Source of the DNA: a virus
Reading direction: 5' to 3' (one strand)
Virus record (IMG/VR): IMGVR_UViG_3300036795_000039
Span: 3,417-67,416 of that record
Length of the DNA stretch: 64,000 nt
The first letter of the stretch is position 1, and the number at the start of each line of letters is the position of its first letter. A model generated the notes under the pieces. It saw nothing but the letters and a program-made list of their open reading frames with translations, was not told the DNA's origin and did no database searches. Below are positions 707 to 37,796 of the stretch, piece after piece. Both the position numbers and the translations under genes were made by a program.

Positions 707-2467
707 ATGACAACTTTTGCTGACGGTCCTTCTGCGCCGTACGCGAGTTCCAACCCGAACGGTAACCAGATCCAGCCGGGGATGAACATCGGTATCAACC
801 CGGCGCTGATGACACCCCGAGACTGGCTCAATGTCTTGACCCGGCGCGTCGACTTCGGTTGGGTCAGAATCGAATTGCTGCGATCCTATGTGGACGGCAA
901 CGCCCCGCTGCCGGAGATGGGCAAGAACACCAAAGAGGCGTGGCAGAAGTTCCAGCGCGAAGCCCGCACCAACTGGGGTGCGCTGATCGTAGAGAGCGTC
1001 ACGAATCGCCTTATCCCCAACGGCATTACGGTCGACGGCTCCAACGATTCCAAGCTGGCCAAGCAGGCGCAGGCCATCTGGAAACGCAACCGGCTCAACA
1101 GCGTGTTCCGCGAATGGGTGCGCTACGGACTGACTTTCAGGCAGTCCTACCTCACCGTGTGGAAGGACGCGGACGACAAGGCTATCATCACGGCGGATTC
1201 CCCTGAGTCCATGGGGGTTTCAGTAGACCCGTTACAGCCATGGAAGGTTCGCGCGGCGGTGCGCTGGTGGCGCGACCTGGACTTACAGGAGGACCGCGCT
1301 CTGGTATGGGGCAACAACAGCAGCCAGTCATTCAAGCGAACCCTGTTGAGCCTCAACGCCCCAACGAACCCGCCGAACAACATGATGTACTACCTGCCGG
1401 TGCGCTTATTGGGGGAGTGGGCCGATGCCGACACCGTCAACGACAGCGGCCAACCACCACCTGTAGTGGTGTACAACAACCCGATCTTCTGCGGCGAATT
1501 CGAAACGCACATAGATCTAATCAACCGGATCAACCGCGAGATCCTAGAACGCTTGACCACCAGCGCAATTCAGGCTTTCCGCCAGCGGGCGATGAAAGGT
1601 GGATTGCCGGTAGTCGACGCGAAAGGCAACCAAATCGATTGGGGCGCAATCTTTGAGCCCGCCCCCGGCGCTATCTGGGATCTGCCCGAAGGCATCGACA
1701 TTTGGGAAAGCCAGCCCACCGACATTCAGCCGATGCTCGCGGCATGCAAAGACGACATTCGACAACTGTCGGCCATGACCTCGACACCATTCCCGGTTCT
1801 TATGCCGGACAACGCAAACCAGACAGCCGAGGGCGCGGACGCAGCCCGAGACGCACACATCTTCAAGTGCGGTGAGCGTCTGGCCGAAGCCAAGGCCGGG
1901 ATCGAAGAAGCCCTGACACTGGCACTGAAAACCGAAGGCGCAGACCTGAGCCCAGACAAGGGCGGCGACTCCACACAAGACAAGCAGGTAGAGGTAATCT
2001 TCAAGCCCGTCGACCGTGTGACGATCGCGGAGATGTATGCCGCCGCGCAGGCAGCGTCTTCGGCTGGCGAGTCGTGGCCGTCGATTGCGCGAAACATCCT
2101 GGGGTACAGCCCAGAACAGATCGCGCAGGACCAGCTCGATAAACTCAACGAGGCGATGCGGGCGGCGATGTTCGCGGGTAACCCGGCGGTCCCGCCGGAG
2201 CCGCCGACCGACGTCGGCGTGAGGTTCGGTCCTGTAAACCCGAATAGGGCAATACAATCCGCGATGGGTAAGCAGCTTGAGAACCAGGCCAACCCGCAAG
2301 CCCCGTCGCAGTTCAACCCGTCACGCACACCACCTGGCGCTAACCCGGCTGCCACGGCGAAAGCCGCTGCCGCAAACAGCAATCCACGCCAGGCCACCAA
2401 CGCCGGTAAGGCAGGCCAGAATACGCAAGGTATCGGAGCGAATAACCCGCCCGCGCGCCGGAGGTGA
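707..2467 (+). CDS. portal protein (SPP1 Gp6-like) with Pro/Ala/Asn-rich C-terminal extension
   Basis: TNWGALIVES, GEFETHIDLINRIN, QAFRQRA, PGAIW, LGYSPEQI motifs; AGGAGG RBS; synteny. Confidence 0.92.
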   Translation: MTTFADGPSAPYASSNPNGNQIQPGMNIGINPALMTPRDWLNVLTRRVDFGWVRIELLRSYVDGNAPLPEMGKNTKEAWQKFQREARTNWGALIVESVTNRLIPNGITVDGSNDSKLAKQAQAIWKRNRLNSVFREWVRYGLTFRQSYLTVWKDADDKAIITADSPESMGVSVDPLQPWKVRAAVRWWRDLDLQEDRALVWGNNSSQSFKRTLLSLNAPTNPPNNMMYYLPVRLLGEWADADTVNDSGQPPPVVVYNNPIFCGEFETHIDLINRINREILERLTTSAIQAFRQRAMKGGLPVVDAKGNQIDWGAIFEPAPGAIWDLPEGIDIWESQPTDIQPMLAACKDDIRQLSAMTSTPFPVLMPDNANQTAEGADAARDAHIFKCGERLAEAKAGIEEALTLALKTEGADLSPDKGGDSTQDKQVEVIFKPVDRVTIAEMYAAAQAASSAGESWPSIARNILGYSPEQIAQDQLDKLNEAMRAAMFAGNPAVPPEPPTDVGVRFGPVNPNRAIQSAMGKQLENQANPQAPSQFNPSRTPPGANPAATAKAAAANSNPRQATNAGKAGQNTQGIGANNPPARRR

Positions 2468-2470
2468 CCA

Positions 2471-2662
2471 ATGTTGTGGCTAGTGCTCGTCAACCAGGCG
2501 GTAATGATCGCAATCACTTCTGCCGCAACGGTTTTCGCATACAAAGCTGATCAGAATTCACGCTGGCTACAAGAAGTGATGGCACCGTGGATGGCTCACA
2601 TATCGAGCATCATAGATCCCAATTGGCCCAAACCGCCTGACCCACCGCCGATTACAGAATGA
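2471..2662 (+). CDS. small membrane protein
   Basis: GGAGG RBS; hydrophobic N-terminus; ATGA overlap with next gene. Confidence 0.55.
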   Translation: MLWLVLVNQAVMIAITSAATVFAYKADQNSRWLQEVMAPWMAHISSIIDPNWPKPPDPPPITE

Positions 2663-5600
2663 CGCGACCCAGAACCGCCGGGGATCTGCTGTCGCAGCGA
2701 CCACATACCGACCTCGACGGCGACGACGAGAGCGACCAACTCAGCGATCCCGAATACAACGCGGGTCTGTTGCCCGAGCGCGGCGAGTACGACGAACCAG
2801 ACGACGAAGGCGACGACGATAACGACGAATTACCCACTCTCGCAGAGATCCCCGATGAGCAGGAGCAGCGGGAGAGGAGCGAAGCCCCCGAGGAGGTCCG
2901 CGAGCAATTCAACGATCTCATGGAAGACGCCGAAGAAGGAGACTTCAAACTAACTGACTACCAACGGTATTGGCGTCGGCTACAAGGGATCGTCTTACAC
3001 CACGTCAACAAGGATTGGCGGCTCGCCGGACCAACACGGGACGCGGCAGCCCACGTCGGAACCGTTGTGCAGTCCGGCCAGAAGGTCGGCAGCCACCTGA
3101 CACAGCTATATGCACAAAGGCATTTGGGCATTGACTTCACCCCGTTCGATCCCGGCCCCGGCATCATTGAGCGTCCCGGCACCAACAAGCTGATGGTGTA
3201 CTCCCGGCCCATACGGGAGAGAAGCCTTGGCGCGCAACTGAGCAGGCTAGAGACGCTTGCCAATACAGATCTGCAACTCGCCAAAGTACGGACCCTGTAT
3301 TCGGCTTTTAACGAAGACCAGACCGTCAACCGCGCGCCGATCAAAACATGGCGGCGCGTCACCACAAGCGAAAACCCCTGCGCCCTATGTGAAATCGCCG
3401 CCGATCAGGTGTACTTCTCCGATGACTTGATGGCCATTCACGACAACTGCATGTGCGACATAGAGCTGGCCGACGAATCCGATCTTGATGAACACAAGGC
3501 CCGCTACCACCACATCGGTTTCGTGCAAACACTTTTGGACATAGGAGAGCAGAAGAAAGACATCCAGACCCTGGCCGACGAGGATGCTCCGGCAGAGGAT
3601 TACCACAACCTCACCAAGATTGAGCAGCACGGAGAACTCGGCCCCGTGATCACCTGGGCTGGGCAGAAATTCACCGGGCCGGGGGAGTTACCCAACCCAA
3701 TGCCCGTTCGGCCCACACCGACAGTCTCAGGGCCAGGACGGGGCCATGAGGCGCGGCTGGCAGAGAACCGTGCCAGGGTGGCGCAGTACCGGGCGCAGCA
3801 GTTCGGCCCCGGCGGGCGCGCAGAGCCGCGCTACCATCCAGAGCACGGCAAGGGCAGCAGCTACGTGCCAACGTCCTACGGGTTGCCACCGATCACGAAA
3901 ACCGTTGGGCCTAAACCACCTAAGCCCAGGCCGATAGAGATGGGCCACGTTATAGCGACCATCGGCCCCGGCGGGCGTGTCAGTATCGAGACAGCAGGCA
4001 AGGTAGCCGAGAAGGCTGGAATTGACTGGGGCACAGCATCGTTGGACGACATGCTCGACTACATGGCCCGCAAGCACTCAGGCGCGGTGCCGCGTGGCTC
4101 GTGGCGGCTAAGTCTGTGGACGTCAACGAAATACAACCGTGTTGCCAAGCGGCGCACCTTGCAGGCCATCGATGAGATGCTGACTAAATATCCTGACGTG
4201 AAGTTCGACGGCGGATTCAAGATCGCCAAACTGGAAAACGGCGTAGTGGCTGAAACATCTTATCGCCCAAGGCTTAACGGCAGGACGACGTTCATGACGT
4301 TCAACACCGATATCATGGAACGCACACCCGACGAACTGACGCAGGCATTCAGGGCTGCCGAAGACGCGGGTCTGTACTTCTCGGGCGCATCCGAAGATCC
4401 TTACCGCGCAATGGTTTACCACGAGTACGGCCATGTACTGGATGTGCGCGGCACCAACCAGGCACGCGAGCAGGCTTCACGGCTGATGATCGCTGAGTTT
4501 ATGAAGTCTGGCCGTCCGATGACCAAGGAGGATCTTAGCGAGTGGATGGCCGAAAAGGACCGGCTCTCAGGCTATTCCATGCAGGACTTCGTCGTACCCG
4601 GCAGGATCTCGCCTCTCACCGGCAAGCCGGGCAGCCTGGCGCTTTCACCGGGCGAGTCCATTGCCCAGGCATTCGATGACGTAGAGCGCCGTGGCGAGCG
4701 AGCGTCCGACGTGTCCAGGGCGCTGCATGCCGAAGTTGTTGAGCGGGCGAAGATCCCATACCCAACAACACCGCTCACCCCCGGTTATTCGCGTGCCGCG
4801 TTGCAGGAAACAGCGGTCGAACGGCTCAAGAAGATGACGCAGCCGAAGATTCCGTGGACCGATGCGGACTTCGCCAAGGAAGACAACTTCAACAAACGCA
4901 AAGACGAGACGGTTATCCTGAGCGACGAAGACCGTTCCCTCGCAAAGCAATTGGCCACCGATATTTACCGGAAGGCCAAAGGCGTGGAGGACGCGATCAC
5001 CGCAGCCGCAGAGTCATCGGTGGGACACAACGGCGGCTACATGTCCGGTTTGGACTTCAGATTGAAGACCGGGCCGTCGCTGTATCGCAAAATTCAGGCC
5101 GAGGCAATCGAGTATGCGCAAGGAAAGCCGGTCACCGAAAACGATCTGCGCACCGCCGCAGCAGACATCAAGGACGCCGTACGGTACACAGGCGTCGTGC
5201 CCGAGGAAGGCTATTGGGCGAAGGGCGACGACATTCGCAAGTCTTTGGAATCGTTGGGGGCCAAGAACATTAAAGACCCGGTTGGCATCCCGCTCAACGG
5301 TTACCGGGGCCGCAACATGTCATTCGAATACAAGGGTGTGGCTTTCGAGATGCAGGTTCACACTGAGCTGGGCGTGGCAATCAAAGACGAGGCGCACCAC
5401 ATCTACAACGAGTCAAGGGTTTTGAAGGAGGCCATCAAAAACCGTGGCGAAGACCCAAACAAAGATCCGGCGTACCTCAAGATGTTCAACGACATGCAGG
5501 CCAAGTGGGACACAATGCCCATGCTCAAAGGCACACCCGTCGTGCAGACCGAGAAGGACGCCAAATCCGGCGACCCGAACAAGGTGCTGTACATCGCGAA

Positions 5601-7155
5601 GGACACCAAATACCGGGGGCCGACAGTACCCGGCGGCGAAGCAGAACTGGGCAGCCTCGAAATGCTTGGACGAGAACGTGTTCCATCAACACGCTTCGGA
5701 TTGACCTGGACACCCGATAGCCCAGAAGCCAAGATCGTTGCGCCCGCACGGACTATGGACAAAGACGTGTGGGCCACATTGCCAGTACAGATGCTGCCGC
5801 ACGGCACGAAGATCCTCGCCAACGAAGGCACCCTGAAGAAGAAGAGCATCGACAAAGTCGTCGGCGGCACAGAGCCTTTCAGGGAGGGCTACCACATCGA
5901 ACTATTCCAAGACAAGAACGGCTTGCATGTCGTGGATGGCCACACCCGTGTGGCCATGTACTACGCACTGAACAAAGACATGCCGGTGAAGATCCTTACG
6001 CAGGATGACATCAACAGGTGGGCCAATGAGCCGGTGCATGAGGCGCTGAAAGCACCGCTTACCGGCTTGAGCGCCGATGACAAGGGCTGGGGTTCGGTTG
6101 CCCGCCGACTACCGGGAGGGGAGACGATCACACCAGTGTTCAAAGAAGGCAAGGGCGGCAAGAAAACACTGGATCTTGAGGGCACCTGGGCTACGGTCAG
6201 CGACGAGACCCTGAAAGAGAACTGGCGCAAGGCATTACGGGACGCCGCGCCGTGGGCGCAGAAGGCCGGTGTCGACTGGTATCCCGGTGTCAACCGGCTT
6301 GCAAATAAACTGACCGACAAGTACGGCAAGCAGTTCGAGAAGCGTTGGGGCATAAAGCTAACACCGGATCTCACCGCAGCATTCTTCGCGGCGTACTCGG
6401 AGAACAATGGATGGGACGGCAACCTCGTCGGCGTGCGCAGGCTGCTCGACGGCACAGGCAACGAATACCTGGGTGTCCTAAAGGATTTCAAGTACAGCGA
6501 AGCCAGCAACTACCGGGGTATCAAGGCTGGCAAGTACGGCACCAAGTACGTCATCCCGGCGAGTACGCCCAGCCCTGAGCGAATCGCCAAGGCGCGAGCC
6601 AAGATTGAAGAGAATTACGCCAAGAAGGGCAAGGTGGCACCCAAGGACGCCACCGGCCTGTCAGAGTTTCAGATACCCGGCGAGACCGGCTGGTATCGGC
6701 TGTATGACTTCCACGTCAACAAAGCCCTGCGGGCCGCGCAGAACCCGCGAGGCGGCATCGCAGATCTACGCGAAAACGACGCCACCGCACCGAAGCCCGC
6801 CGACTTTGGGGCTAACATCGCAGGCGATTATGATAAGGCCACAGCCGACCGCTGGGTGGCCCGAATTATCCTGCACAGCGACGACGGCGTATTCTCCGAA
6901 TCCATGCGCGGCTACAGTAAGACCACGGGCGGCGTGCCGGATCGTATCGGGTACAAGCGCATGAGCAAGGCGTTGCAAGATGTGTCCAAGGAGCCGGAAT
7001 TCGCGCACCTAAACGCGGCTGCGGTGCAGGCGATCCCATGGGTGCATGTGGTAGGTCCACTAGGGTCAATCGGTGAGATCGATGACCTGTCAAGTTATGC
7101 TAGCGTTAAGGCTGAAACTTTGCGCAAGGCAGCAGAATTCGGGGATGTGGAGTGA
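2659..7155 (+). CDS. MuF-like/capsid maturation protein fused to zincin, RelA/SpoT-like alarmone synthetase, ParB-like and C-terminal glycosylase-like domains
   Basis: WRRV..ENPCALC..IHDNCMC (MuF-type, 3349-3456); HEYGH (4420); GLDFRLKT..SLYRKI..DAVRYT..YRG..FEMQVHT (5047-5364); VVDGHTR (5929); DWY..W.GN..ADRW..VQAIPW (6274-7041); lies between portal and scaffold. Confidence 0.82.
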   Translation: MTRPRTAGDLLSQRPHTDLDGDDESDQLSDPEYNAGLLPERGEYDEPDDEGDDDNDELPTLAEIPDEQEQRERSEAPEEVREQFNDLMEDAEEGDFKLTDYQRYWRRLQGIVLHHVNKDWRLAGPTRDAAAHVGTVVQSGQKVGSHLTQLYAQRHLGIDFTPFDPGPGIIERPGTNKLMVYSRPIRERSLGAQLSRLETLANTDLQLAKVRTLYSAFNEDQTVNRAPIKTWRRVTTSENPCALCEIAADQVYFSDDLMAIHDNCMCDIELADESDLDEHKARYHHIGFVQTLLDIGEQKKDIQTLADEDAPAEDYHNLTKIEQHGELGPVITWAGQKFTGPGELPNPMPVRPTPTVSGPGRGHEARLAENRARVAQYRAQQFGPGGRAEPRYHPEHGKGSSYVPTSYGLPPITKTVGPKPPKPRPIEMGHVIATIGPGGRVSIETAGKVAEKAGIDWGTASLDDMLDYMARKHSGAVPRGSWRLSLWTSTKYNRVAKRRTLQAIDEMLTKYPDVKFDGGFKIAKLENGVVAETSYRPRLNGRTTFMTFNTDIMERTPDELTQAFRAAEDAGLYFSGASEDPYRAMVYHEYGHVLDVRGTNQAREQASRLMIAEFMKSGRPMTKEDLSEWMAEKDRLSGYSMQDFVVPGRISPLTGKPGSLALSPGESIAQAFDDVERRGERASDVSRALHAEVVERAKIPYPTTPLTPGYSRAALQETAVERLKKMTQPKIPWTDADFAKEDNFNKRKDETVILSDEDRSLAKQLATDIYRKAKGVEDAITAAAESSVGHNGGYMSGLDFRLKTGPSLYRKIQAEAIEYAQGKPVTENDLRTAAADIKDAVRYTGVVPEEGYWAKGDDIRKSLESLGAKNIKDPVGIPLNGYRGRNMSFEYKGVAFEMQVHTELGVAIKDEAHHIYNESRVLKEAIKNRGEDPNKDPAYLKMFNDMQAKWDTMPMLKGTPVVQTEKDAKSGDPNKVLYIAKDTKYRGPTVPGGEAELGSLEMLGRERVPSTRFGLTWTPDSPEAKIVAPARTMDKDVWATLPVQMLPHGTKILANEGTLKKKSIDKVVGGTEPFREGYHIELFQDKNGLHVVDGHTRVAMYYALNKDMPVKILTQDDINRWANEPVHEALKAPLTGLSADDKGWGSVARRLPGGETITPVFKEGKGGKKTLDLEGTWATVSDETLKENWRKALRDAAPWAQKAGVDWYPGVNRLANKLTDKYGKQFEKRWGIKLTPDLTAAFFAAYSENNGWDGNLVGVRRLLDGTGNEYLGVLKDFKYSEASNYRGIKAGKYGTKYVIPASTPSPERIAKARAKIEENYAKKGKVAPKDATGLSEFQIPGETGWYRLYDFHVNKALRAAQNPRGGIADLRENDATAPKPADFGANIAGDYDKATADRWVARIILHSDDGVFSESMRGYSKTTGGVPDRIGYKRMSKALQDVSKEPEFAHLNAAAVQAIPWVHVVGPLGSIGEIDDLSSYASVKAETLRKAAEFGDVE

Positions 7156-7361
7156 CTGTACCAAATCCTGTGGACGACATGACATTTCATGCCGACTTCG
7201 ATGGGCATGCGGAGGAAGTATTCGACACGCTGCAATCCGCGATGGCGTGGGCCGAGGATCTTGGTGATGAGCAGACCGGGGATATCAGCTTCCAGGGCGT
7301 CCCAATCATCGTGTACGCGAGAGGACGAATCAGTGCTCCTGAAACCACCTACCCGGCGTGA
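7152..7361 (+). CDS. small acidic hypothetical protein
   Basis: GTGA overlap with upstream stop. Confidence 0.5.
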   Translation: MTVPNPVDDMTFHADFDGHAEEVFDTLQSAMAWAEDLGDEQTGDISFQGVPIIVYARGRISAPETTYPA

Positions 7362-7596
7362 CCTACAGAAGACCTTCGGACGCGTGCTCAACGACATCCT
7401 TGATGGCACAATCGATTCCGCGCCGGAGGGCAACGGGCTAGACGAACAGGTCAACGCCGCGCTCAACGACCTGGCCGAGAACATGGACAAGCGCGCCATC
7501 AAAACACTCGCCGCATATGAGGCTTTCGGCAACCAACTCACCGGCTTGCACTCCGCGCAGGGGCAGGACGATATCCTCAAACTGCTTGGGCCATAA
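7333..7596 (+). CDS. small hypothetical protein
   Basis: GAGGA RBS before GTG at 7333; phage-like codon usage. Confidence 0.55.
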   Translation: MLLKPPTRRDLQKTFGRVLNDILDGTIDSAPEGNGLDEQVNAALNDLAENMDKRAIKTLAAYEAFGNQLTGLHSAQGQDDILKLLGP

Positions 7597-7621: not shown

Positions 7622-7737
7622 CCCCGGCGTGTCCTCCCGCCACACCCTGGCGTTATTGGTGTAATGTTTCTGGGCGAAGGGGTAATCCCGTGCCCGCAAC
7701 GGGTTCGGTTCACATGCGAAACGCTCAGGAAGACACC

Positions 7738-8490
7738 ATGACTGCACCCGATCATCCCACCCCGACTCCAAACAGCATGCCCGGCGCTGGGCAACAGCCG
7801 ACACCGAATCCTCAATTGCAGGAGCCGGTTTCGACGAGCACACCGCCAAAGCAGCCGGAGCCGAAACCGACACCGACACCTCCCCAACAGGACACTCCGG
7901 CCAGCGAGCCCCCCGTAACGGGCACCCCGCCTCCCGGTTCTGCTGTCCCAGACGAGAACTGGCGTGACATCGCACGCAAGATGGAGGCCAGGGCCAAGGA
8001 GAATGCCGAAGCGGCCAAGAAGTGGGAAGAGCATCAAGCGGCGCAGCGCACCAAGGAGGAGAACGACGCCATCGCCATGGCCCAGTTACAGCTTGAGCGT
8101 GACGAGGCCATGGCCGAAGTGGTCCGCGAACGGATCGCACGCGAAACCGGTGTTCTCCCACAGTTTCTCGGTAGCGGTACTGAGGAACAGATGCGCGATG
8201 CCGCCAAGGCAGCCCTGGAATGGCGCGGCGTAGTCCCGCCCGAACCCCCCAGGCCGCAAACCGCTGCGGTCCCTGCTTCAACGGTCACCTCTGCTGACAA
8301 GATGGGTGCAGCCCCAAATGGCATACAGCAGTTGACAAAAGAGCAGTTCGTCGCTTTGCCGCCCAACGAGCGTATGGATGCGGTGCGTGCAGGCGCATGC
8401 ACAAATCTGGGCATCGGCAAGCCGGTGCCACAGCGCCGTATGGGCAATCAGCTAGAGCTTGGCGCATCGATGGGTGCTGGCAAGCAATAA
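7738..8490 (+). CDS. head scaffolding protein
   Basis: Pro-rich N-terminus, W..ARK.E.RAK.N coiled coil, G.TEE motif; precedes capsid gene. Confidence 0.85.
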   Translation: MTAPDHPTPTPNSMPGAGQQPTPNPQLQEPVSTSTPPKQPEPKPTPTPPQQDTPASEPPVTGTPPPGSAVPDENWRDIARKMEARAKENAEAAKKWEEHQAAQRTKEENDAIAMAQLQLERDEAMAEVVRERIARETGVLPQFLGSGTEEQMRDAAKAALEWRGVVPPEPPRPQTAAVPASTVTSADKMGAAPNGIQQLTKEQFVALPPNERMDAVRAGACTNLGIGKPVPQRRMGNQLELGASMGAGKQ

Positions 8491-8512: not shown

Positions 8513-9367
8513 ATGGCCATCACCAATTTTATCCCCGAACTTTGGGCGGCAGCGCTGCTCGAAGTCTGGTGGAACGAAACGGTTTTCGCCGCTCTGGTGA
8601 ACCGTGAATACGAGGGCATCGCCACTCGTGGCAACACCGTGAACATTACCGGCGTTGTCGTGCCCACCGTCACGGATTACGCTGCGGCAGGCCGGGTTAC
8701 GAACGCCGAAGACATCACCGACACCGGAATTCAATTGGTTATTGACCAGGAGAAGTCGACGGACTTCTTCGTTGACGACATCGACCGTGCGCAGGCTGCC
8801 GGTTCCCTGTCGGCCTACGCGGACGCGGCAGGCGTTGCGCTGGTTGAAGATTCGGACAAGTTCATCGCAGACCTGTTGATTTCCAACGGAACTCCGCTTG
8901 TCCCGACCGGCGTGACCGACACGCCCGGCCCCGGCACTCTGGGCAACCTGACGCCGGATGACGCATTCAACCTTGTGAAGGATGCGCGCAAGCAGATGAA
9001 CAAAGCCGCTGTGCCATCAGCGAATCGGGCCTGCGTGATGAACGCGGAATTCGAGGGACTGTTGCTGTCGGCGGCATCCAAGCTGACAACCTTCTACCAG
9101 GTGGACGACACCGAGGGTCTGCGTAACGCGACCGTTGGCCAGCTACTCGGTATGCGAATGGTCACGAGCAACAACCTGCCCGCTATCAACTCACCGCAGT
9201 TCGTGGCGTTCGCACCGCGCGCCGCCGCGTACGTGTCGCAAATCGATCAGGTCGAAGCGATGCGGGCACAGACCAAGTTCGCCGACCGGATCAGGGCACT
9301 ACATGTCTACGGCGGCAAGGTCGTTCGTCCCGTGGGTGTGGTGGTATATAACGGCGGCGGCAGCTAA
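8513..9367 (+). CDS. major capsid protein
   Basis: MAITNFIPELWAAALL, NREYEG, IDQEK, FADRIRALHVYGGKVVRP; mycobacteriophage capsid type; ends GGGS. Confidence 0.93.
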   Translation: MAITNFIPELWAAALLEVWWNETVFAALVNREYEGIATRGNTVNITGVVVPTVTDYAAAGRVTNAEDITDTGIQLVIDQEKSTDFFVDDIDRAQAAGSLSAYADAAGVALVEDSDKFIADLLISNGTPLVPTGVTDTPGPGTLGNLTPDDAFNLVKDARKQMNKAAVPSANRACVMNAEFEGLLLSAASKLTTFYQVDDTEGLRNATVGQLLGMRMVTSNNLPAINSPQFVAFAPRAAAYVSQIDQVEAMRAQTKFADRIRALHVYGGKVVRPVGVVVYNGGGS

Positions 9368-29918: not shown

Positions 29919-30402
29919 GGGATGCGAAAAACGAACCAATGCAAAGGGATTGTGTCACGGGCACTACCGGCGATGGCGGCTGTATGGAGATCCTTTAGCA
30001 GGCCACGACAGATATCAGCCGAAGTTCTGCGAGGTGGGCGGTTGTTCGAATCGTATGGAGGGGCACGGGTATTGCGTGAAGCATTTGCGCCGCTGGCATC
30101 TGTACGGCGACCCACTTATTCGCATGCGGGCCGAAAATGGTTCAGGCACCATCAATCCCGATGGTTATCGGGAGATTTTCCGCGACGGAAAGCAGGTTTT
30201 AGAGCACCGCTGGGTAATGGCGCAGGCGCTTGGCCGTTCGTTACTACCGGACGAGGTGGTACATCACCGAAACGGCAATCGTGCCGACAACAGAATCGAG
30301 AACTTGGAACTATGGGTACGTTCCCACCCTGCGGGACAACGAGTTTCGGAGGTGGTCGAATGGGCGCGAGAAATGCTGGCTCGCTACGACGAGGCGGCGT
30401 GA
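29902..30402 (+). CDS. HNH endonuclease with two N-terminal zinc-finger repeats
   Basis: C.VEGC..GLC..HY.RW..YGDP x2; EHR.VM...LGR.L...[21 protein letters not shown]. Confidence 0.9.
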
Positions 30403-30406
30403 TCGC

Positions 30407-32056
30407 ATGACTGGCACCGTCAGTATTGACAACGTTAACTTCATGTGGCAGACGGTCATCATGCCACGCCAGGGCGACATCTATGTCTTTGGCGGTTCGT
30501 TAAATCCGAACGCGGTGCAGATGGGAACTGATTGCAGCGGAGCGGTTTCCGAGGTGGATGAGGCGGTTCTGTTTGGGGCGCAGATGAGTTGGATGCGCCA
30601 GTTCTGGACGGGGACCTTTGCCGGAGCGAATCCCGGCGACAGGGGTCCATTCCAGAATGTGTCCTGTACGTCAGAGTGGGTGTGTATCGCCGGTCCTGGT
30701 GACGCGCCAGCCGGTGCCGTCATGGTGGTCGCGGTCCTACAAGATCCCGACCCGTCGTCGGCGCACATGGTGTGTCAGGTGCTGGACCCCGATAACGTTA
30801 CTGGGTTCGGTGGTCCCGGCAAGTATGTGGGTATCGAGTCCGGCGGTCAGTTCGAAGACCCGAACGGTAACTCCACGTTGCACATTGGGCCTATCGCCAC
30901 CAGCATCTACGATCGTGAATTCAACCAGTGGTTCTACCTCGACCGCACGGTAGTCAGCCAGCCGGTGCTGACACCGTTGGAGGAGAACGCTCTAACTATC
31001 CTGAATGTCGGCGTGTCCAAAGGCATTGCACCGATAGGTATCCAGATGTCTTATGCATGCGTGTATGACGAGTCCAACTTCCTGATGTATGCGAACGCGA
31101 AAGTTGAAGAGTCCTTCAACTATCCGCATGACGCGGTCGGCAGCGACGGCTATTCGTGCGGCCCGTTCCAGCAGCAGTACACCGAAGGCTGGGGAAGCGT
31201 TGCGTGCGAGATGGATTGGGCGTGCTCGGCGGGCCTGTTCTTCGATGCGCTGGCCCGCACTGACTACAACAACTCGGCGAATTCGCCGGGGTGGCGCATC
31301 CAGCAAGTACAGCGGTCGGCTACAGTGGACGGCTCAAACTATGACGCACAGTGGAGTAGGGCTGTGTCGCTTTACAATACGGTGATCAACGCGCAAGCGG
31401 AAGGGTTCCTCATGTCACTATCCGATCAACAGCAGGCCGACCTGTACACCTGGTTAGGTGACATCCACGGCGGGCTGTTCAACTCGATCCAAAGCCAATC
31501 TCCCTTCAGGGCTTTAGGTGAGGGCGCGATTTGGCAGCAACACCAGATGCCTATCAACGACGACGGGTTCATTCATCCACAGTACGTGGCTTGGGCTGCG
31601 TCCGTGGGAGATTCGGGCAGCCTTGCGGTGCTGGAATCGTTGGCCACCGCATCGCCCACCACATGGCCCGACAGGGCGGCAGACATCGCGCTGGCGCAGC
31701 AAGTGCTGGCGGCGGTGCAGGGCGGTGCTGTGATCCCGCCGCCGGTCGTAACGCCAACGCCGAACGTAGTTACGCCGGACGTCGTCACGCCACAGCCGGT
31801 TACGCCGGTCATCAGCCCGTCAGGCATCAATATCAGCCCGGCGCAACTGATTACGTGGGCCAACGACGCGGTAACTATCATCGGGACATTGGGCACTTGG
31901 GCTACGTCCATTCACAGCATCCTGGGTCAGTTCTTGCCCGGCGCGTCCGGTGTTGTGGTGCCCTCAATGCTGGCCGCTGCCACCACCGTTTCGGCGGGCC
32001 ACACCGTACACCGTCGCCACCAGGCCGAGAAGGCGCTAGCTAAGTCGGGCACATAG
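30407..32056 (+). CDS. endolysin (lysin A): NlpC/P60-like peptidase plus lysozyme/transglycosylase-like domain
   Basis: Y.FGG..GTDCSG..AHM; ES.F.MYAN..V.ES..YPHDAVGSDG.S.GPFQQQ..WG; Q.VQRSA..DGSNY. Confidence 0.85.
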   Translation: MTGTVSIDNVNFMWQTVIMPRQGDIYVFGGSLNPNAVQMGTDCSGAVSEVDEAVLFGAQMSWMRQFWTGTFAGANPGDRGPFQNVSCTSEWVCIAGPGDAPAGAVMVVAVLQDPDPSSAHMVCQVLDPDNVTGFGGPGKYVGIESGGQFEDPNGNSTLHIGPIATSIYDREFNQWFYLDRTVVSQPVLTPLEENALTILNVGVSKGIAPIGIQMSYACVYDESNFLMYANAKVEESFNYPHDAVGSDGYSCGPFQQQYTEGWGSVACEMDWACSAGLFFDALARTDYNNSANSPGWRIQQVQRSATVDGSNYDAQWSRAVSLYNTVINAQAEGFLMSLSDQQQADLYTWLGDIHGGLFNSIQSQSPFRALGEGAIWQQHQMPINDDGFIHPQYVAWAASVGDSGSLAVLESLATASPTTWPDRAADIALAQQVLAAVQGGAVIPPPVVTPTPNVVTPDVVTPQPVTPVISPSGINISPAQLITWANDAVTIIGTLGTWATSIHSILGQFLPGASGVVVPSMLAAATTVSAGHTVHRRHQAEKALAKSGT

Positions 32057-33457: not shown

Positions 33458-33706
33458 CTATGCGAACTCGTCGTAACGCGCCTGTATCTCTGCTTGCACC
33501 CGCGCCACCTCTGACGCGTCGATCATGGTGAACTCGCCCAGCCACAGGATGTCATCCTGCGCGTGGTCGTTGGGTTGCCAGCCGCTGGCCGGTCGCCAGC
33601 TCTGCGCCGGGGCCGACAGCCATATGGGCATGTTGCCGTCTGTTGGCGCGTCAACCCGATACAACTTGGTGGCCGGTCCAGGCCCACCATTGCTGTAGTA
33701 CAGCAT
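33458..33706 (-). CDS. 82-aa protein, candidate immunity protein for an alarmone-synthetase toxin (IapK-like pattern)
   Basis: GGAGG RBS; YY....P..LYR....W......I..LGEF..I...EV pattern. Confidence 0.55.
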   Translation of the reverse strand: MLYYSNGGPGPATKLYRVDAPTDGNMPIWLSAPAQSWRPASGWQPNDHAQDDILWLGEFTMIDASEVARVQAEIQARYDEFA

Positions 33707-33714
33707 TTCAATCT

Positions 33715-33930
33715 TTACCTCCCGTTCAACTTGTTCGCTCGTTCCCATTGCTCCGCAATGGCTTTCGCTCCCTTCCTAGACGCGGCCTCCTGGCTGGTGA
33801 TCATTTTGCCCCCGCGCCCATGCTGACTCACGCAGATCATGCCCGTATGTCTGACCGGTGTTACTCGATAGACTCGGTCAGCACCACCATGCGCTATCAG
33901 GTTGACGCCTACAGCATTCCACTGCATCAT
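33715..33930 (-). CDS. small hypothetical protein
   Basis: GAGGTG RBS; operon continuity. Confidence 0.6.
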   Translation of the reverse strand: MMQWNAVGVNLIAHGGADRVYRVTPVRHTGMICVSQHGRGGKMITSQEAASRKGAKAIAEQWERANKLNGR

Positions 33931-34512: not shown

Positions 34513-35667
34513 TTACGCTTCGACGTGAACCGTTCGACCGAACGGTCCCGTCATACTGGTGGTCGCGAGCCACAGGGTCGGTATCTCCGACGTGTCTGGC
34601 GCACGGCCACACAGGTCGGTGATGTACACGACACCCGCGATGTGCTCGCCCATGGCGACCAACTCATCGACCCGGTTGAACACTGGCCGAAAGTCCGTTC
34701 CGCCACCACCTTTCGCGGACAGCGGGCACTCGTCGCCTGGGGCCAACTCGATCTCGTCTTTGATCGCCGCGTCGGCGTCGAGGACCAGACCAGAGCAACC
34801 CGTTTCTGACAAGCACTCAGTGATTAGCGCGGAGTACGCCGACAACTGCTGGTTGCTGACCGAACCGCTTGTGTCCCTTGCGAACACGACCTTGCCTATC
34901 TCATCAGCCCGCTTGCGCGGGTAGATGACCGGCTGCCAGGCGTGCCGCCTAGCGGAGCGCGACCAGTCATTGCGGGTGGACATGGCGTCCTTCACAAAGT
35001 CCGCCATCTCGCGCCGCCAGTCAATCGACTGATGGCGTATCCGGTCCAGAATCCGTTGCAGGTCACCGGGAACGTCACCGACCCCCAGCGCTTGCGCAGC
35101 TTGCGCGGCCTGAATCACCGCGCCGTCCCACGCATCTCGCAACTCCTGGCTGGCCTGAGCGGCTGCCTGAGCGTCACCGGACGGGTCAGCAGCGGGTTCG
35201 CCGAACGTACCGCAGGGATCGCTTGCGCCCCCTTGGCTTTCGCCGCCCTTGCCGCCGCCGTCCTGTTGGTCAGGTTCGGGCAGACGTCCAAGAATTTCCT
35301 CACACGCCAGCCCGCGATACTGCGAGTCGGCCAGGCCACCATCCGGCATCTTGATATCGGCGATGTCCTGTAGCGTCAGGTTAATCTCATGGTCACCCGC
35401 GACGTTGCCGCGCTGGTCCGCCGGTAAACGCCACATGTGCTGGTGAGCACAGTGCAGTGTCTCATGTAGCAGGACGAATCGCAGTTCCTCATCGGACAGC
35501 GACTCCACAAAGGTTGGGTTCCAAGCGATCTCGCGACCGTTGGTGTGAGCCGTCTCAGTGGATGGGTCCAGCTTGTCGGGCAAGCGCATCGCCAGCGAAC
35601 CGTAGAACGGCTGGTTGGTCAGCGCCCACCACCGCGCTCTATCGATGCGCGTGGTTACTGATGTCAC
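34513..35667 (-). CDS. DUF2201-type metallopeptidase-VWA protein
   Basis: PFYG, TA.TNG, HETLH, N.A.D..IN; DTSGS MIDAS, GGGGTDFRPVF, YITD. Confidence 0.88.
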   Translation of the reverse strand: MTSVTTRIDRARWWALTNQPFYGSLAMRLPDKLDPSTETAHTNGREIAWNPTFVESLSDEELRFVLLHETLHCAHQHMWRLPADQRGNVAGDHEINLTLQDIADIKMPDGGLADSQYRGLACEEILGRLPEPDQQDGGGKGGESQGGASDPCGTFGEPAADPSGDAQAAAQASQELRDAWDGAVIQAAQAAQALGVGDVPGDLQRILDRIRHQSIDWRREMADFVKDAMSTRNDWSRSARRHAWQPVIYPRKRADEIGKVVFARDTSGSVSNQQLSAYSALITECLSETGCSGLVLDADAAIKDEIELAPGDECPLSAKGGGGTDFRPVFNRVDELVAMGEHIAGVVYITDLCGRAPDTSEIPTLWLATTSMTGPFGRTVHVEA

Positions 35668-35670
35668 TTT

Positions 35671-35755
35671 GGTTTCCTCTCTCGTGCAACCGATTTGGCT
35701 GCCGACCGGAGCTGGCCGAGGTTGCCCCCGACCAGTCCGACTGCGGCCCTTCAGA
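35671..35755 (-). repeat. structured intergenic element copy 2
   Basis: GAAGGGCCGCAGTC-GGACTGGTCGGGG(GCAA)CCTCGGCCAGCTCC-GGTCGGCAGCCAAATCGGTTGC-ACGAGAGAGGAAACC. Confidence 0.88.
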
Positions 35756-36556
35756 TTACTTGATACCTCCCAACACCGACAGGATGTCAGATGCTTGCTT
35801 GGCAACCTTGCGGCGTGCCTTGGCGTCGTCGCGAACGTCCTCCGCGTGGATCGTGGCCAGCGGCTCCATCGCCTTGACCACCGGGGCGAAATCGCCCGAA
35901 AAGTCAAGATCTGGAACCAGATTGGTGAGATCACGAATCGAGTCGAACACGGACGCGTACAGCTTGCCGTCCGCCTTACAGCGATCACGCACACGCCGCA
36001 ACGCCTCCGCGAGACGCGCACGCAGTTCCTTCTCGGCCTCTTCCGCCGAAGCTGCGAGCCATTCACCCCACGCGCCATCCGCCGGGGTCGGCAGGTACCG
36101 CGTGCCAAACGAGAACTTGCCCTCAATCTCGTTGCGGCTCGGCCACATTGACGCGTCAAACAGACCGTTCAACCGGGCCGGTGCGTTCCGCCGCTCCGAC
36201 TCGTAGTCGGCGAGGAATGCTGCCACCAGCTTGTTGTGACGATCTCCCAGCTTCCGCATGACCTCCGCGTGTTCGAACTCACGGCCAGCGGGCAACATCC
36301 GCATACCGTCCTGAGCGGACGGCAGCGTGAGCCGCCGGTGCTCCTGGTACGCTTCCGCGTGCAGCTTGGCGAGGTCAGACAGCGCCGGGTGATCCGACAC
36401 GCGAACAAGAACCTTGGCGGCATTGACGATACCGTGGGCCTCATTCACCGCGTGAGTTTCCTTGCGGTGCTGCCGCGTTGCCTGCCACCGGCCCGTGTTC
36501 AACACAGCCAGCTTGGTTCTCGCGGCTACCTCTTCGATGTTAATGATGTTATTCAT
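35756..36556 (-). CDS. DUF3150-like helical protein
   Basis: W...R, TLP....G.R.LP, F...Y, LF....P....I..KF pattern; sits between AAA and VWA genes. Confidence 0.6.
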   Translation of the reverse strand: MNNIINIEEVAARTKLAVLNTGRWQATRQHRKETHAVNEAHGIVNAAKVLVRVSDHPALSDLAKLHAEAYQEHRRLTLPSAQDGMRMLPAGREFEHAEVMRKLGDRHNKLVAAFLADYESERRNAPARLNGLFDASMWPSRNEIEGKFSFGTRYLPTPADGAWGEWLAASAEEAEKELRARLAEALRRVRDRCKADGKLYASVFDSIRDLTNLVPDLDFSGDFAPVVKAMEPLATIHAEDVRDDAKARRKVAKQASDILSVLGGIK

Positions 36557-36647: not shown

Positions 36648-37691
36648 TCAGTTGACTGCGAACAGCTCTTGGTTCTCAGTGAACCAGAACACCCACTCTT
36701 TGCTGCCGGACAGCTTCGCGCCCAGCTTGCGGTACATGTCACGAGCCAGCAATGCACCGTAGACACGCGGCATCCGACTCATGTATTGCACGGCGGCTGT
36801 TGCATGTTGCTGCTCGACCGCTGCGGCCAGCATGGACGCGACCAGGTACAGCGCGGCTGGATCGTCGGGCACCGGAGCGCCCTTCGGGTCCATCCACACC
36901 TGGTCTGGTGTCGGCAGCTTGTTCGCCAACCGGGCGAACGCTAGGAACTCAGCCGCCGCCGGTTTCCCGATAGCAGCAGAGATGGACGACAAGTCCTGAA
37001 TCCCGTTCTGCCACAGGCGAATCACCGTCTCCCACGAGCGGTAGTCCGGCATACGGACGGCCGGGTGGGCGGACGGCTTCCAGTTGTACAGCGGCGAGTT
37101 TTCCTCGCGGGCACCAGTCGAACGGTGCCAGGCGATGATTTCCGCCGGAGCGCCGTTGTCCATCGCCCACTCGGTCCACTGCGCCACTTCGTCCTGCCAG
37201 GTACCCAGCATCACCGGGCCGTCTGCGGCGGTGTTCGCAGAACCGGGGGCCGGGATTTCGAACGCCAGGTGGAACCGTGACCGCAGCGGCTCGCAGAGCC
37301 GCGTCACACCGGCCACATCACCGGGCCGGTTGGTCGCGCCCCAAATGAGAACCTGCGGCGACAACGTCCCCTCATCGAACAACCGCATCAGCGCGGCCTG
37401 CACGTCGATGGGGGCCTGCCCCAGGTCATCGAGGAACAACAGTGTCGGCTCTGTGGTGGTCTGAAGATCGGCCAGCACATCGAGCGGAAGTGCCTTGGTG
37501 ACACCGGCTTTCATGTCCGGCACCAGGGCGCCCCCGAAGTCCACACGCTCGGACAGGCTCGCCCGCATCACTACGAGCCGCCTGCCCAGATCCTTTGCGA
37601 CGGCCGCGATTCGGGCTGTCTTGGCGCAACCGGGCGGGCCGACCAGCAATACTCGCTGACCAGCCGCCATCAGTGCGTTAAGTTTCGACAT
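36648..37691 (-). CDS. MoxR-like AAA+ ATPase
   Basis: Walker A GPPGCAKT, Walker B LLFLDD, ATN sensor, PLRSRF Arg finger, RSWE. Confidence 0.9.
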   Translation of the reverse strand: MSKLNALMAAGQRVLLVGPPGCAKTARIAAVAKDLGRRLVVMRASLSERVDFGGALVPDMKAGVTKALPLDVLADLQTTTEPTLLFLDDLGQAPIDVQAALMRLFDEGTLSPQVLIWGATNRPGDVAGVTRLCEPLRSRFHLAFEIPAPGSANTAADGPVMLGTWQDEVAQWTEWAMDNGAPAEIIAWHRSTGAREENSPLYNWKPSAHPAVRMPDYRSWETVIRLWQNGIQDLSSISAAIGKPAAAEFLAFARLANKLPTPDQVWMDPKGAPVPDDPAALYLVASMLAAAVEQQHATAAVQYMSRMPRVYGALLARDMYRKLGAKLSGSKEWVFWFTENQELFAVN

Positions 37692-37693
37692 AT

Positions 37694-37796
37694 GGTTTCC
37701 TCTCTCAGGCAGCCGGATTGCTCCGGCGCACAGCCAATTTGACTGCTGAGCAGGTACCACCAGGATCGCTGGTGGCCCTGACTGCGGCCCTTTGGT
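37694..37796 (-). repeat. structured intergenic element copy 4 (extra GCAA hairpin)
   Basis: AAAGGGCCGCAGTC-[stem]-GCTCAGCAGTCAAATTGGCTGT-GC-GCCGGA(GCAA)TCCGGC-..GAGAGAGGAAACC. Confidence 0.85.

Follow-up and report, generated by a model that had tools for sequence, protein, structure and literature searches.

Why does the head module of a virus contain a gene of 1,498 codons between its portal and scaffold genes, and what might the product of this gene do? The gene lies in the IMG/VR virus record IMGVR_UViG_3300036795_000039, of which we analysed 64,000 nucleotides (the window; bases 3417-67416 of a 67,416-base record that is 100% complete by CheckV); all positions below are those of the window. 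A note made earlier from the sequence (the original prediction) had described an open reading frame (ORF) at 2659-7155 that encodes a multi-domain, MuF-like head protein with an internal, Apk2-like alarmone synthetase. We found that its product, P0001, is a known theme, that of polyvalent proteins and MuF toxins, in a new domain combination. In polyvalent proteins, known from phages and conjugative elements, one chain unites between two and fifteen domains that are unrelated and mostly enzymatic (Iyer et al. 2017, PMC5512222).

Domain organisation of P0001

At E <= 1e-3, ten relatives of P0001 were found, and P0003 is 59% identical to it across 95% of its length. The ORF is therefore not a chance frame, and the multi-domain protein that had been predicted is encoded by a real gene. 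Two further homologue searches yielded 7 and 4 proteins, respectively, none with a name other than 'hypothetical protein'. No match was obtained when the gene was compared by megablast with 50,697 phage records; by tblastn, 382 of the phage records were matched, all at less than 60% identity and none spanning 80% of the query. Pfam scans of the single domains at E <= 1 recovered VG15 and DUF7178 only, besides chance-level rows (SoPB_HTH, TQ). Five globular domains were mapped in the one polypeptide, which is divided as follows.

2659-7155, plus strand: whole polyvalent gene encoding P0001 (1,498 aa); open frame, translation and relatives.
2659-2940, plus strand: acidic N-terminal region (residues 1-94), probably disordered; D/E-rich translation and low conservation in alignment A1.
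2941-3708, plus strand: VG15 or 'MuF-like' head-protein domain (residues 95-350); CxxC...HxNCxC motif, phrog_1522 at 2.7e-23.
3709-4065, plus strand: Pro/Gly-rich linker (residues 351-469); translation, no family match.
4066-4863, plus strand: predicted zincin-like metallopeptidase (MPTase; residues 470-735); HEYGH at 588-592, D595, and E666 in GESIAQAF.
4891-5553, plus strand: RelA/SpoT-homologue (RSH) synthetase domain (residues 745-965); profile, AlphaFold2 model and Foldseek.
5554-5655, plus strand: structured connector (residues 966-999), packing on the RSH domain; pLDDT above 90 in a two-domain model.
5656-6033, plus strand: sulfiredoxin (Srx)/ParB-fold domain (residues 1000-1125); PFR and DGHTR motifs, Foldseek.
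6076-7152, plus strand: DUF7178 domain (residues 1140-1498), with a modelled HhH-GPD glycosylase-like fold; Pfam DUF7178 at 7.5e-11.

Every motif quoted in the original prediction was located in the translation. Its ranges for the zincin (about 4050-4750) and for the RSH domain (about 4940-5530) lie within about 100 nt of the boundaries mapped here, 4066-4863 and 4891-5553.

The RSH domain keeps the synthetase active site

A RelA/SpoT-like synthetase had been placed inside the chain, and both the domain and its internal position (residues 745-965 of 1,498) were borne out. The RSH motifs are FRLKTGPSLYRKI (residues 800-812), DAVRYT (839-844), GYRGRN (881-886), FEMQVHT (896-902) and HHIYNESR (913-920). 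When the domain was compared with the PDB by phmmer, 8vx3 alone was matched (6.9e-6), and a profile of 8 relatives brought this match to 1.6e-10. Residues 740-1130 were modelled with AlphaFold2 from a 49-row alignment (pLDDT 94.2, pTM 0.89). The Foldseek comparison had been named beforehand as a point at which the synthetase assignment might fall, and the fold was found, with matches to 8vx3 (5.4e-9), Tas1 (1.2e-5) and CapRel (2.5e-3).

The entry 8VX3 is SaEAS of Streptomyces albidoflavus, an enzyme of one domain that is exported by the Sec route and synthesises both (p)ppApp and (p)ppGpp, and for which the residues D121, R124, K154, N169, E182 and Q184 are named (PMC12691689). In P0001, D839, R842, K872, N886, E897 and Q899 align with these residues in the same order (D121 is Ala in the crystal). 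All six catalytic or ATP-binding residues are invariant among the 8 relatives (alignment A1). SaEAS is thus the best match of the RSH domain in both sequence and structure, whereas the two are only about 22% identical and the P0001 domain forms part of a structural polyprotein of a phage. By model and alignment, the domain is predicted to be a SYNTH fold in which every ATP-binding and catalytic residue of the SaEAS/Tas1 type is kept, and most likely it is an ATP-consuming 3'-pyrophosphokinase. Its product is probably (p)ppApp, perhaps together with (p)ppGpp by analogy with SaEAS. Product specificity cannot be read from the sequence; swapping syn motifs left the specificity of Apk2 unchanged (PMC12226406).

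The designation 'Apk2-like' stood in part. The RSH domain shares an RSH group with the Apk2-like domain of Streptococcus phage V22 (27% identity, 1e-17 by BLASTP), and both match the Rel-like tail of the NCBIfam model NF041399. The Pfam model RelA_SpoT (PF04607) did not match the P0001 domain at E <= 1. As it fails on the V22 domain too, this model does not reach the present RSH group. In contrast, the P0001 and V22 domains fall in opposite halves of the RSH tree (111 rows), and neither iapK- or aph1-type genes nor an integrase (PF00589, PF00239) were found with P0001. Both genes are head-module genes that follow the portal gene. [quoted passage not shown]

The N-terminal domain is MuF-like by position and motif

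According to the original prediction, the chain begins with a MuF-type Cys/His domain. The Cys4 motif (PCALCEIA at residues 240-247 and IHDNCMCD at 260-267) and the position between portal and scaffold genes agree with this, but the domain fails the canonical MuF models and is of the VG15 type instead. Pfam VG15 (PF25310) matches P0001 at 19.2-21.5 bits, under its gathering cut-off of 26 bits; 9/26 relatives are matched as well, the best at 9.7e-31, and residues 95-350 have an Atlas feature score of 0.95 to VG15 clusters. In tblastn, the N-domain matched gp4 of cluster-F mycobacteriophages (about 31% identity, 1e-19). This protein, annotated for example in phage Donkeykong as 'capsid maturation protease and MuF-like fusion protein', occupies the same slot between portal and scaffold genes and has the VG15-type Cys4 domain. 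It is 251 aa long and consists of the N-domain alone, whereas P0001 adds about 1,150 residues with four further domains.

PF04233 and TIGR01641 gave no match to the N-domain at E <= 1, while the V22 protein, used as a control, matched both (1.2e-15 and 4.9e-24, respectively). When 23 N-domains were aligned with V22 residues 1-340 by hhalign, the Cys...HPxCxC motifs came into register, but only at E 0.035 and a probability of 1.5. Because of these results, we call the N-domain MuF-like by position and motif: judged from its sequence, it is a VG15-type Cys4 domain and not a shown member of the MuF family.

A ParB/Srx-fold domain recurs with this RSH group

Behind the RSH domain, a ParB/Srx-like domain had been proposed from the motif VVDGHTR, and Foldseek agreed, matching residues 1000-1125 to Srx chains at probabilities of 0.97-1.0. 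The domain contains HVVDGHTRVAMY at residues 1090-1101, with DGHTR at 1093-1097. In alignment A2, D94, G95, H96 and R98 are invariant and PFR is conserved; DGHxR is present in 60/62 segments. The model thus predicts a sulfiredoxin/ParB fold with an active-site Arg of the GxHR type. The Pfam ParB models do not match P0001, and ParBc_2 matched 5/13 relatives (best E 0.0013). A profile search of the PDB with alignment A2 gave nothing at E <= 10.

With residues 455-1498 as the query, HMMER identified 1,223 proteins (E <= 1e-3), and the best 150 of the 1,223 were used; the five domains were mapped on 156 proteins by local phmmer. Among these, 107 have the RSH domain and 62 the ParB/Srx-like domain, and 44 have both, in either order, counts that are biased towards two-domain proteins because the query held both domains. 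In the 111-row RSH tree, the order ParB-RSH (27 rows) needs 15 changes and the order RSH-ParB (16 rows) needs 8. Well-supported branches force at least 8 and at least 4 of these changes, respectively, and the order differs between sister rows. This is a quick maximum-likelihood tree with SH-aLRT supports only, from which segments of less than 120 profile positions were excluded, and its rows without a ParB domain may include proteins cut at contig ends. Ten proteins with the ParB-RSH arrangement matched no Pfam family at E <= 0.01. A literature search gave no RSH-ParB/Srx fusion in the titles or abstract openings of the matches listed, and the main text of a ParB survey based on PF02195 contains neither 'alarmone' nor 'ppGpp' (PMC12704722). 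The recurrence of the ParB/Srx-like domain with this RSH group, in either order (44/62 carriers), looks new.

We also examined the pairing in a split-chain complex test, in which the RSH domain was set against the connector plus the ParB domain. With a custom alignment, the score was 0.78, compared to 0.00 for the best of 3 controls; such a score is reached by 58/80 solved complexes and 2/110 mismatched pairs. Contacts agreed in at least 95% across runs, and the partner had a pLDDT of at least 84. The confident contacts involve mostly model residues 233-281, which lie beside the chain cut, and only 318-319 of the Srx core. What the test shows is packing of the connector on the RSH domain, and we did not accept the pass as a contact between RSH domain and Srx core.

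Bacterial genomes mostly encode the ParB/Srx-like domain as a short gene of its own, in Mycobacterium, Mycolicibacterium and further Actinomycetota. Separate neighbouring genes for a ParB/Srx-like protein and an RSH-family protein were present in 2/8 genome loci (L020 and L015). At 4306-6644 of L020, a metagenome-assembled genome from the Actinomycetota, a chromosomal operon encodes a small alarmone synthetase (PF04607, 1.2e-6), a LuxR-type helix-turn-helix protein, a free-standing ParB/Srx-like protein and an ORF of 89 aa. In L015, a gene of the HD_4 hydrolase type adjoins that of the ParB/Srx-like protein.

The putative zincin domain

The sequence also bears out the HEYGH zincin of the original prediction. 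HEYGHVLD is found at residues 588-595 (nt 4420-4443), and HExxH is kept in 45/46 homologous segments and HExxHxxD in 33/46. The domain matches phrog_17987 at 3.4e-6, and its Atlas features 'Pro-Pro endopeptidase family' and 'Metalloprotease family' score 0.92 each. One relative gave a weak ATLF match, and giant proteins of 2,600-4,500 residues have up to five zincin copies per chain. A zincin fold comprises a three-stranded sheet flanked by one helix on the N-terminal and two on the C-terminal side. The phage-type MPTase of polyvalent proteins is described as having HEXXH with an Asp three residues further along, plus a Glu from the helix that follows (PMC5512222). Since HEYGH, D595 and E666 fit this signature, we liken residues 470-735 to it, as a putative zincin-like MPTase with the signature HExxHxxD...E.

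DUF7178 has a glycosylase-like fold

The C-terminus had been called reminiscent of HhH glycosylases, and the modelled fold of DUF7178 agrees. WYP, SENNGW, DRW and QAIPW are located in residues 1203-1467. A model built from a 26-row alignment (pLDDT 94.0) consists around its central motif of a helix, a four-residue hairpin, a helix starting with a conserved Pro-Lys, a loop of ten residues and, capping the helix that comes next, an invariant Asp. K1379 and D1397 are conserved, and the spacing from Lys to Asp is 18 residues, as between K120 and D138 of E. coli nth, which we take to be the catalytic residues of that enzyme. In HhH-GPD enzymes, the HhH hairpin precedes a Gly/Pro/Asp loop and the catalytic Asp, and bifunctional members also have a Lys. 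On the model, K1379/D1397 is a candidate catalytic pair.

The overall fold resembles that of the HhH-GPD glycosylases (Ogg, AGOG, MagIII, Endonuclease III and MutY) and of the queuine salvage enzyme DUF2419. Differences are the lack of sequence-profile similarity, an insertion of about 85 residues (model residues ~125-210) that shorter DUF7178 variants do not have, and a Lys/Asp equivalence that follows from spacing and secondary structure only. Foldseek against the PDB was weak (E 0.2), and the only rows with a real probability were 8-oxoguanine glycosylases and DUF2419. Pfam HhH-GPD matched none of the 26 DUF7178 members, and hhalign of DUF7178 against E. coli nth (Endonuclease III) gave a probability of 0.1. 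The glycosylase reading is therefore drawn from the fold, as the sequence profiles show no link to nth. In BFVD, DUF7178 matched large phage proteins, several of them named as polyvalent ('Large polyvalent protein associated domain', 'ART-PolyVal-like'), as well as small phage proteins. A full-text literature search found no paper on DUF7178, and the text of PMC5512222 contains neither 'glycosylase' nor 'helix-hairpin-helix', while its supplements may already list the architecture of P0001. The model suggests that DUF7178 has a two-lobed HhH-GPD glycosylase-like fold, an assignment that looks new.

P0001 belongs to a mosaic family of polyvalent proteins

The close family mostly retains VG15, the zincin and DUF7178. 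Variable modules among the relatives are the RSH domain, the ParB/Srx domain, a second ParB domain, an ADP-ribosyltransferase (ART), a glutamine deamidase, an intein and an 'ANGGITIDL' module, and the zincin is absent altogether in one relative (P0007). Because the relatives are mosaic, we regard P0001 as a polyvalent protein and not as a classical Apk2.

A class of polyvalent proteins with RelA/SpoT, MPTase and ParB domains has already been described (PMC5512222). Like these proteins, P0001 joins unrelated effector domains in a single chain around a zincin MPTase hub with HEXXH, Asp and Glu, and the RelA/SpoT, ParB/Srx-superfamily and ART domains, the location among late or head genes and the extreme mosaicism are shared as well (PMC5512222). 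In contrast to P0001, which is encoded in an actinophage-like genome, the RelA/SpoT bearers described there belong to (pro)phages from Spirochaetes and from epsilon-proteobacteria and to MuF fusions (PMC5512222).

Two modules of the relatives were seen on the side. In P0012, an intein-like insertion at residues ~205-465 (Intein_splicing and intein N-terminal models) interrupts the VG15/MuF-like Cys motif. The second is a module of ~150 residues, 'ANGGITIDL...GYAYAP...LGVFDL', which occurs at variable positions in P0005, P0006, P0009, P0010 and P0011, has no Pfam match and is absent from P0001.

Gene neighbourhood

The genes around P0001 follow the order large terminase end, SPP1-type portal, 63-aa ORF, 1,498-aa gene, 135-aa ORF, scaffold, major capsid protein, adaptors, tail terminator and major tail protein. 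The neighbouring features are given below.

707-2467, plus strand: SPP1-type portal gene; Pfam PF05133 at 9.1e-16, phrog_104 at 2.8e-93.
2471-2662, plus strand: 63-aa ORF with a hydrophobic N-terminus; its stop overlaps the ATG of the large gene (ATGA, 2659-2662).
7189-7596, plus strand: 135-aa ORF between the polyvalent and scaffold genes; a conserved head-module gene.
7690-8490, plus strand: scaffold gene; phrog_2592 at 3.2e-27.
8513-9367, plus strand: major capsid gene; phrog_267 at 7.1e-65.

This arrangement is common to all relatives on IMG/VR contigs in which the flank is present: a portal homologue lies immediately upstream of the polyvalent gene in L004, L005, L022 and L024, and a homologue of the 135-aa ORF, the scaffold gene and the capsid gene lie downstream in L022, L023 and L024. 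The same order is found in Streptococcus phage V22 (portal, MuF-Apk2-like gene, with the scaffold further on) and in Mycobacterium phage Donkeykong (portal, gp4, scaffold).

The 63-aa ORF is translationally coupled to the large gene by the ATGA overlap. It has homologues in the equivalent position in L004 (E 2.9e-23) and L005 (E 2.5e-24) and no PHROG match, and may encode a small membrane or head-assembly protein. The 135-aa ORF had no match in Pfam and PHROG scans. Its homologues in the equivalent position (L022 6570-6908, L023 1886-2380 and L024 6046-6540; 2.6e-15 to 9.5e-10) each precede the scaffold gene and follow the gene of a polyvalent protein that ends in DUF7178 and has no detected RSH domain. 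The 135-aa ORF is therefore not tied to the synthetase, and a role linked to DUF7178 or to head assembly is possible.

The major capsid protein is 58% identical to capsid proteins of cluster-F mycobacteriophages. This similarity points to a host that probably belongs to the Actinomycetota and is perhaps a mycobacterium.

Possible function of P0001 and alternatives

Taking domains and position together, we lean towards P0001 being a minor head protein in the gp7/MuF position that has grown into a polyvalent effector. MuF proteins are believed to bind DNA and to number 2-3 copies per head (PMC12226406), and polyvalent proteins are thought to be effectors that are delivered early (PMC5512222). 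As the gene position, the N-domain and this published picture fit together, a few copies of P0001 would be built into the head through the N-domain and would leave it with the DNA. After entry into a new host cell, the RSH domain would move pyrophosphate from ATP to the 3'-OH of ATP or ADP, and perhaps of GTP or GDP. The resulting (p)ppApp or (p)ppGpp and the draining of ATP would shut down host metabolism. The zincin might cleave the chain into working pieces; chain cleavage by a zincin has been proposed for DdrB of phage P1 (PMC5512222). The ParB/Srx-like domain may bind a nucleotide and control or complement the synthetase, and DUF7178 may bind or cut DNA.

Since no iapK- or aph1-type genes were found, the cell that produces the phage must either tolerate the synthetase or keep it inactive. 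Our hypothesis is that the ParB/Srx domain and the connector are candidates for this role. A more specific proposal, which is tentative and which we would rather doubt than adopt, concerns both C-terminal domains. The ParB/Srx-fold domain would be a dedicated partner of the RSH clade, either as a brake on the acceptor site during synthesis and packaging that is freed by the zincin and replaces IapK/Aph1, or as a second enzyme, a nucleotide phosphotransferase or a hydrolase, with the alarmone as its substrate. DUF7178 would at the same time be a capsid-delivered glycosylase/lyase of the HhH-GPD type. If both hold, the phage would inject a three-part kit against nucleotides and DNA.

Several of the results weigh against the effector reading. 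Packaging, injection, reaction product and self-cleavage are inferred. The N-domain escapes PF04233 and TIGR01641 and aligns with V22 only at E 0.035, the RSH domain escapes PF04607 and its product cannot be read from the sequence, and the zincin assignment has sequence motifs as its basis. The two-domain query favoured the co-occurrence of RSH and ParB/Srx-like domains, the contacts in the complex test lie next to the cut, and the Foldseek and hhalign comparisons of DUF7178 with glycosylases were weak.

A role in head assembly is the alternative that survives best, although we consider it unlikely. The zincin would then be a capsid or scaffold maturation protease, and the other domains would act in the producing cell or in the capsid and would not be injected. 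The families phrog_1522 and phrog_17987 are both labelled 'head maturation protease', the homologous gp4 bears a protease name, and no separate prohead protease was found among the ten proteins scanned (eight head/tail-module genes, the small ORF at 2471-2662 and the terminase end). However, gp4 of Donkeykong has this name with VG15 only and no zincin, a separate scaffold gene is present, and relative P0007 lacks the zincin. In addition, modules of the effector type (ADP-ribosyltransferase, glutamine deamidase and RSH) are hard to account for by assembly alone.

The RSH domain could also be a tRNA 3'-CCA pyrophosphokinase that halts translation, as CapRel, FaRel2 and PhRel2 are, instead of an alarmone synthetase. 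CapRel is indeed among the Foldseek matches of the domain, behind 8vx3 and Tas1, and we judge this reading to be quite improbable.

The third alternative takes P0001 for a MuF polymorphic toxin of the classical kind from a temperate phage, used by lysogens against non-immune neighbours, with the 135-aa ORF as its immunity protein. The place of this ORF after the polyvalent gene would fit, but its homologues in L022, L023 and L024 follow polyvalent genes without a detected RSH domain, and on this ground we rejected it as an immunity gene of the synthetase. Scans of the whole 67.4-kb record, complete by CheckV, with PF00589 and PF00239 gave no integrase, and no HD_4 hydrolase gene was found in the genome. 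A second candidate, a 96-aa ORF at 33458-33748 on the minus strand, was considered as an IapK-like immunity gene and found unsupported: BLASTP gave no alignment at E <= 100 with the gene that occupies the iapK position in V22, and the ORF has no PHROG family, whereas the V22 gene matches phrog_3514 at 2.8e-37. We therefore give little credit to this alternative. By eye only, the 96-aa ORF and the V22 gene have loosely alike residue patterns.

Finally, it is very hard to believe that one or more domains are inactive relics that serve as bulk or binding modules only: the activity of all domains here is predicted only, but their catalytic residues are invariant or nearly so (the RSH set, HExxH in 45/46, DGHxR in 60/62 and the Lys/Asp pair of DUF7178).

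If P0001 is a polyvalent effector, alarmone-type toxins of head proteins would extend from prophage proteins with a single toxin, in Firmicutes and Pasteurellaceae, to a protein with several enzymes in a phage that is actinophage-like and apparently non-temperate. Current ideas are not overturned by this, because the general class was predicted in 2017. The leads that arise are the pairing of ParB/Srx and RSH domains, the fold of DUF7178 and the question of how a toxic synthetase stays silent without separate immunity genes.

Other features of the window

The composition profile showed nothing unusual at the locus, and ARAGORN found no tRNA within the window. Further along, a 608-aa multi-domain endolysin is encoded at 30230-32056 (plus strand), followed by a 306-aa ORF with weak membrane-protein matches only. 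A leftward block encodes a 548-aa phrog_1314 'HNH endonuclease' protein at 34513-36159 and a 370-aa ATPase (phrog_1297) at 36648-37760, both on the minus strand.

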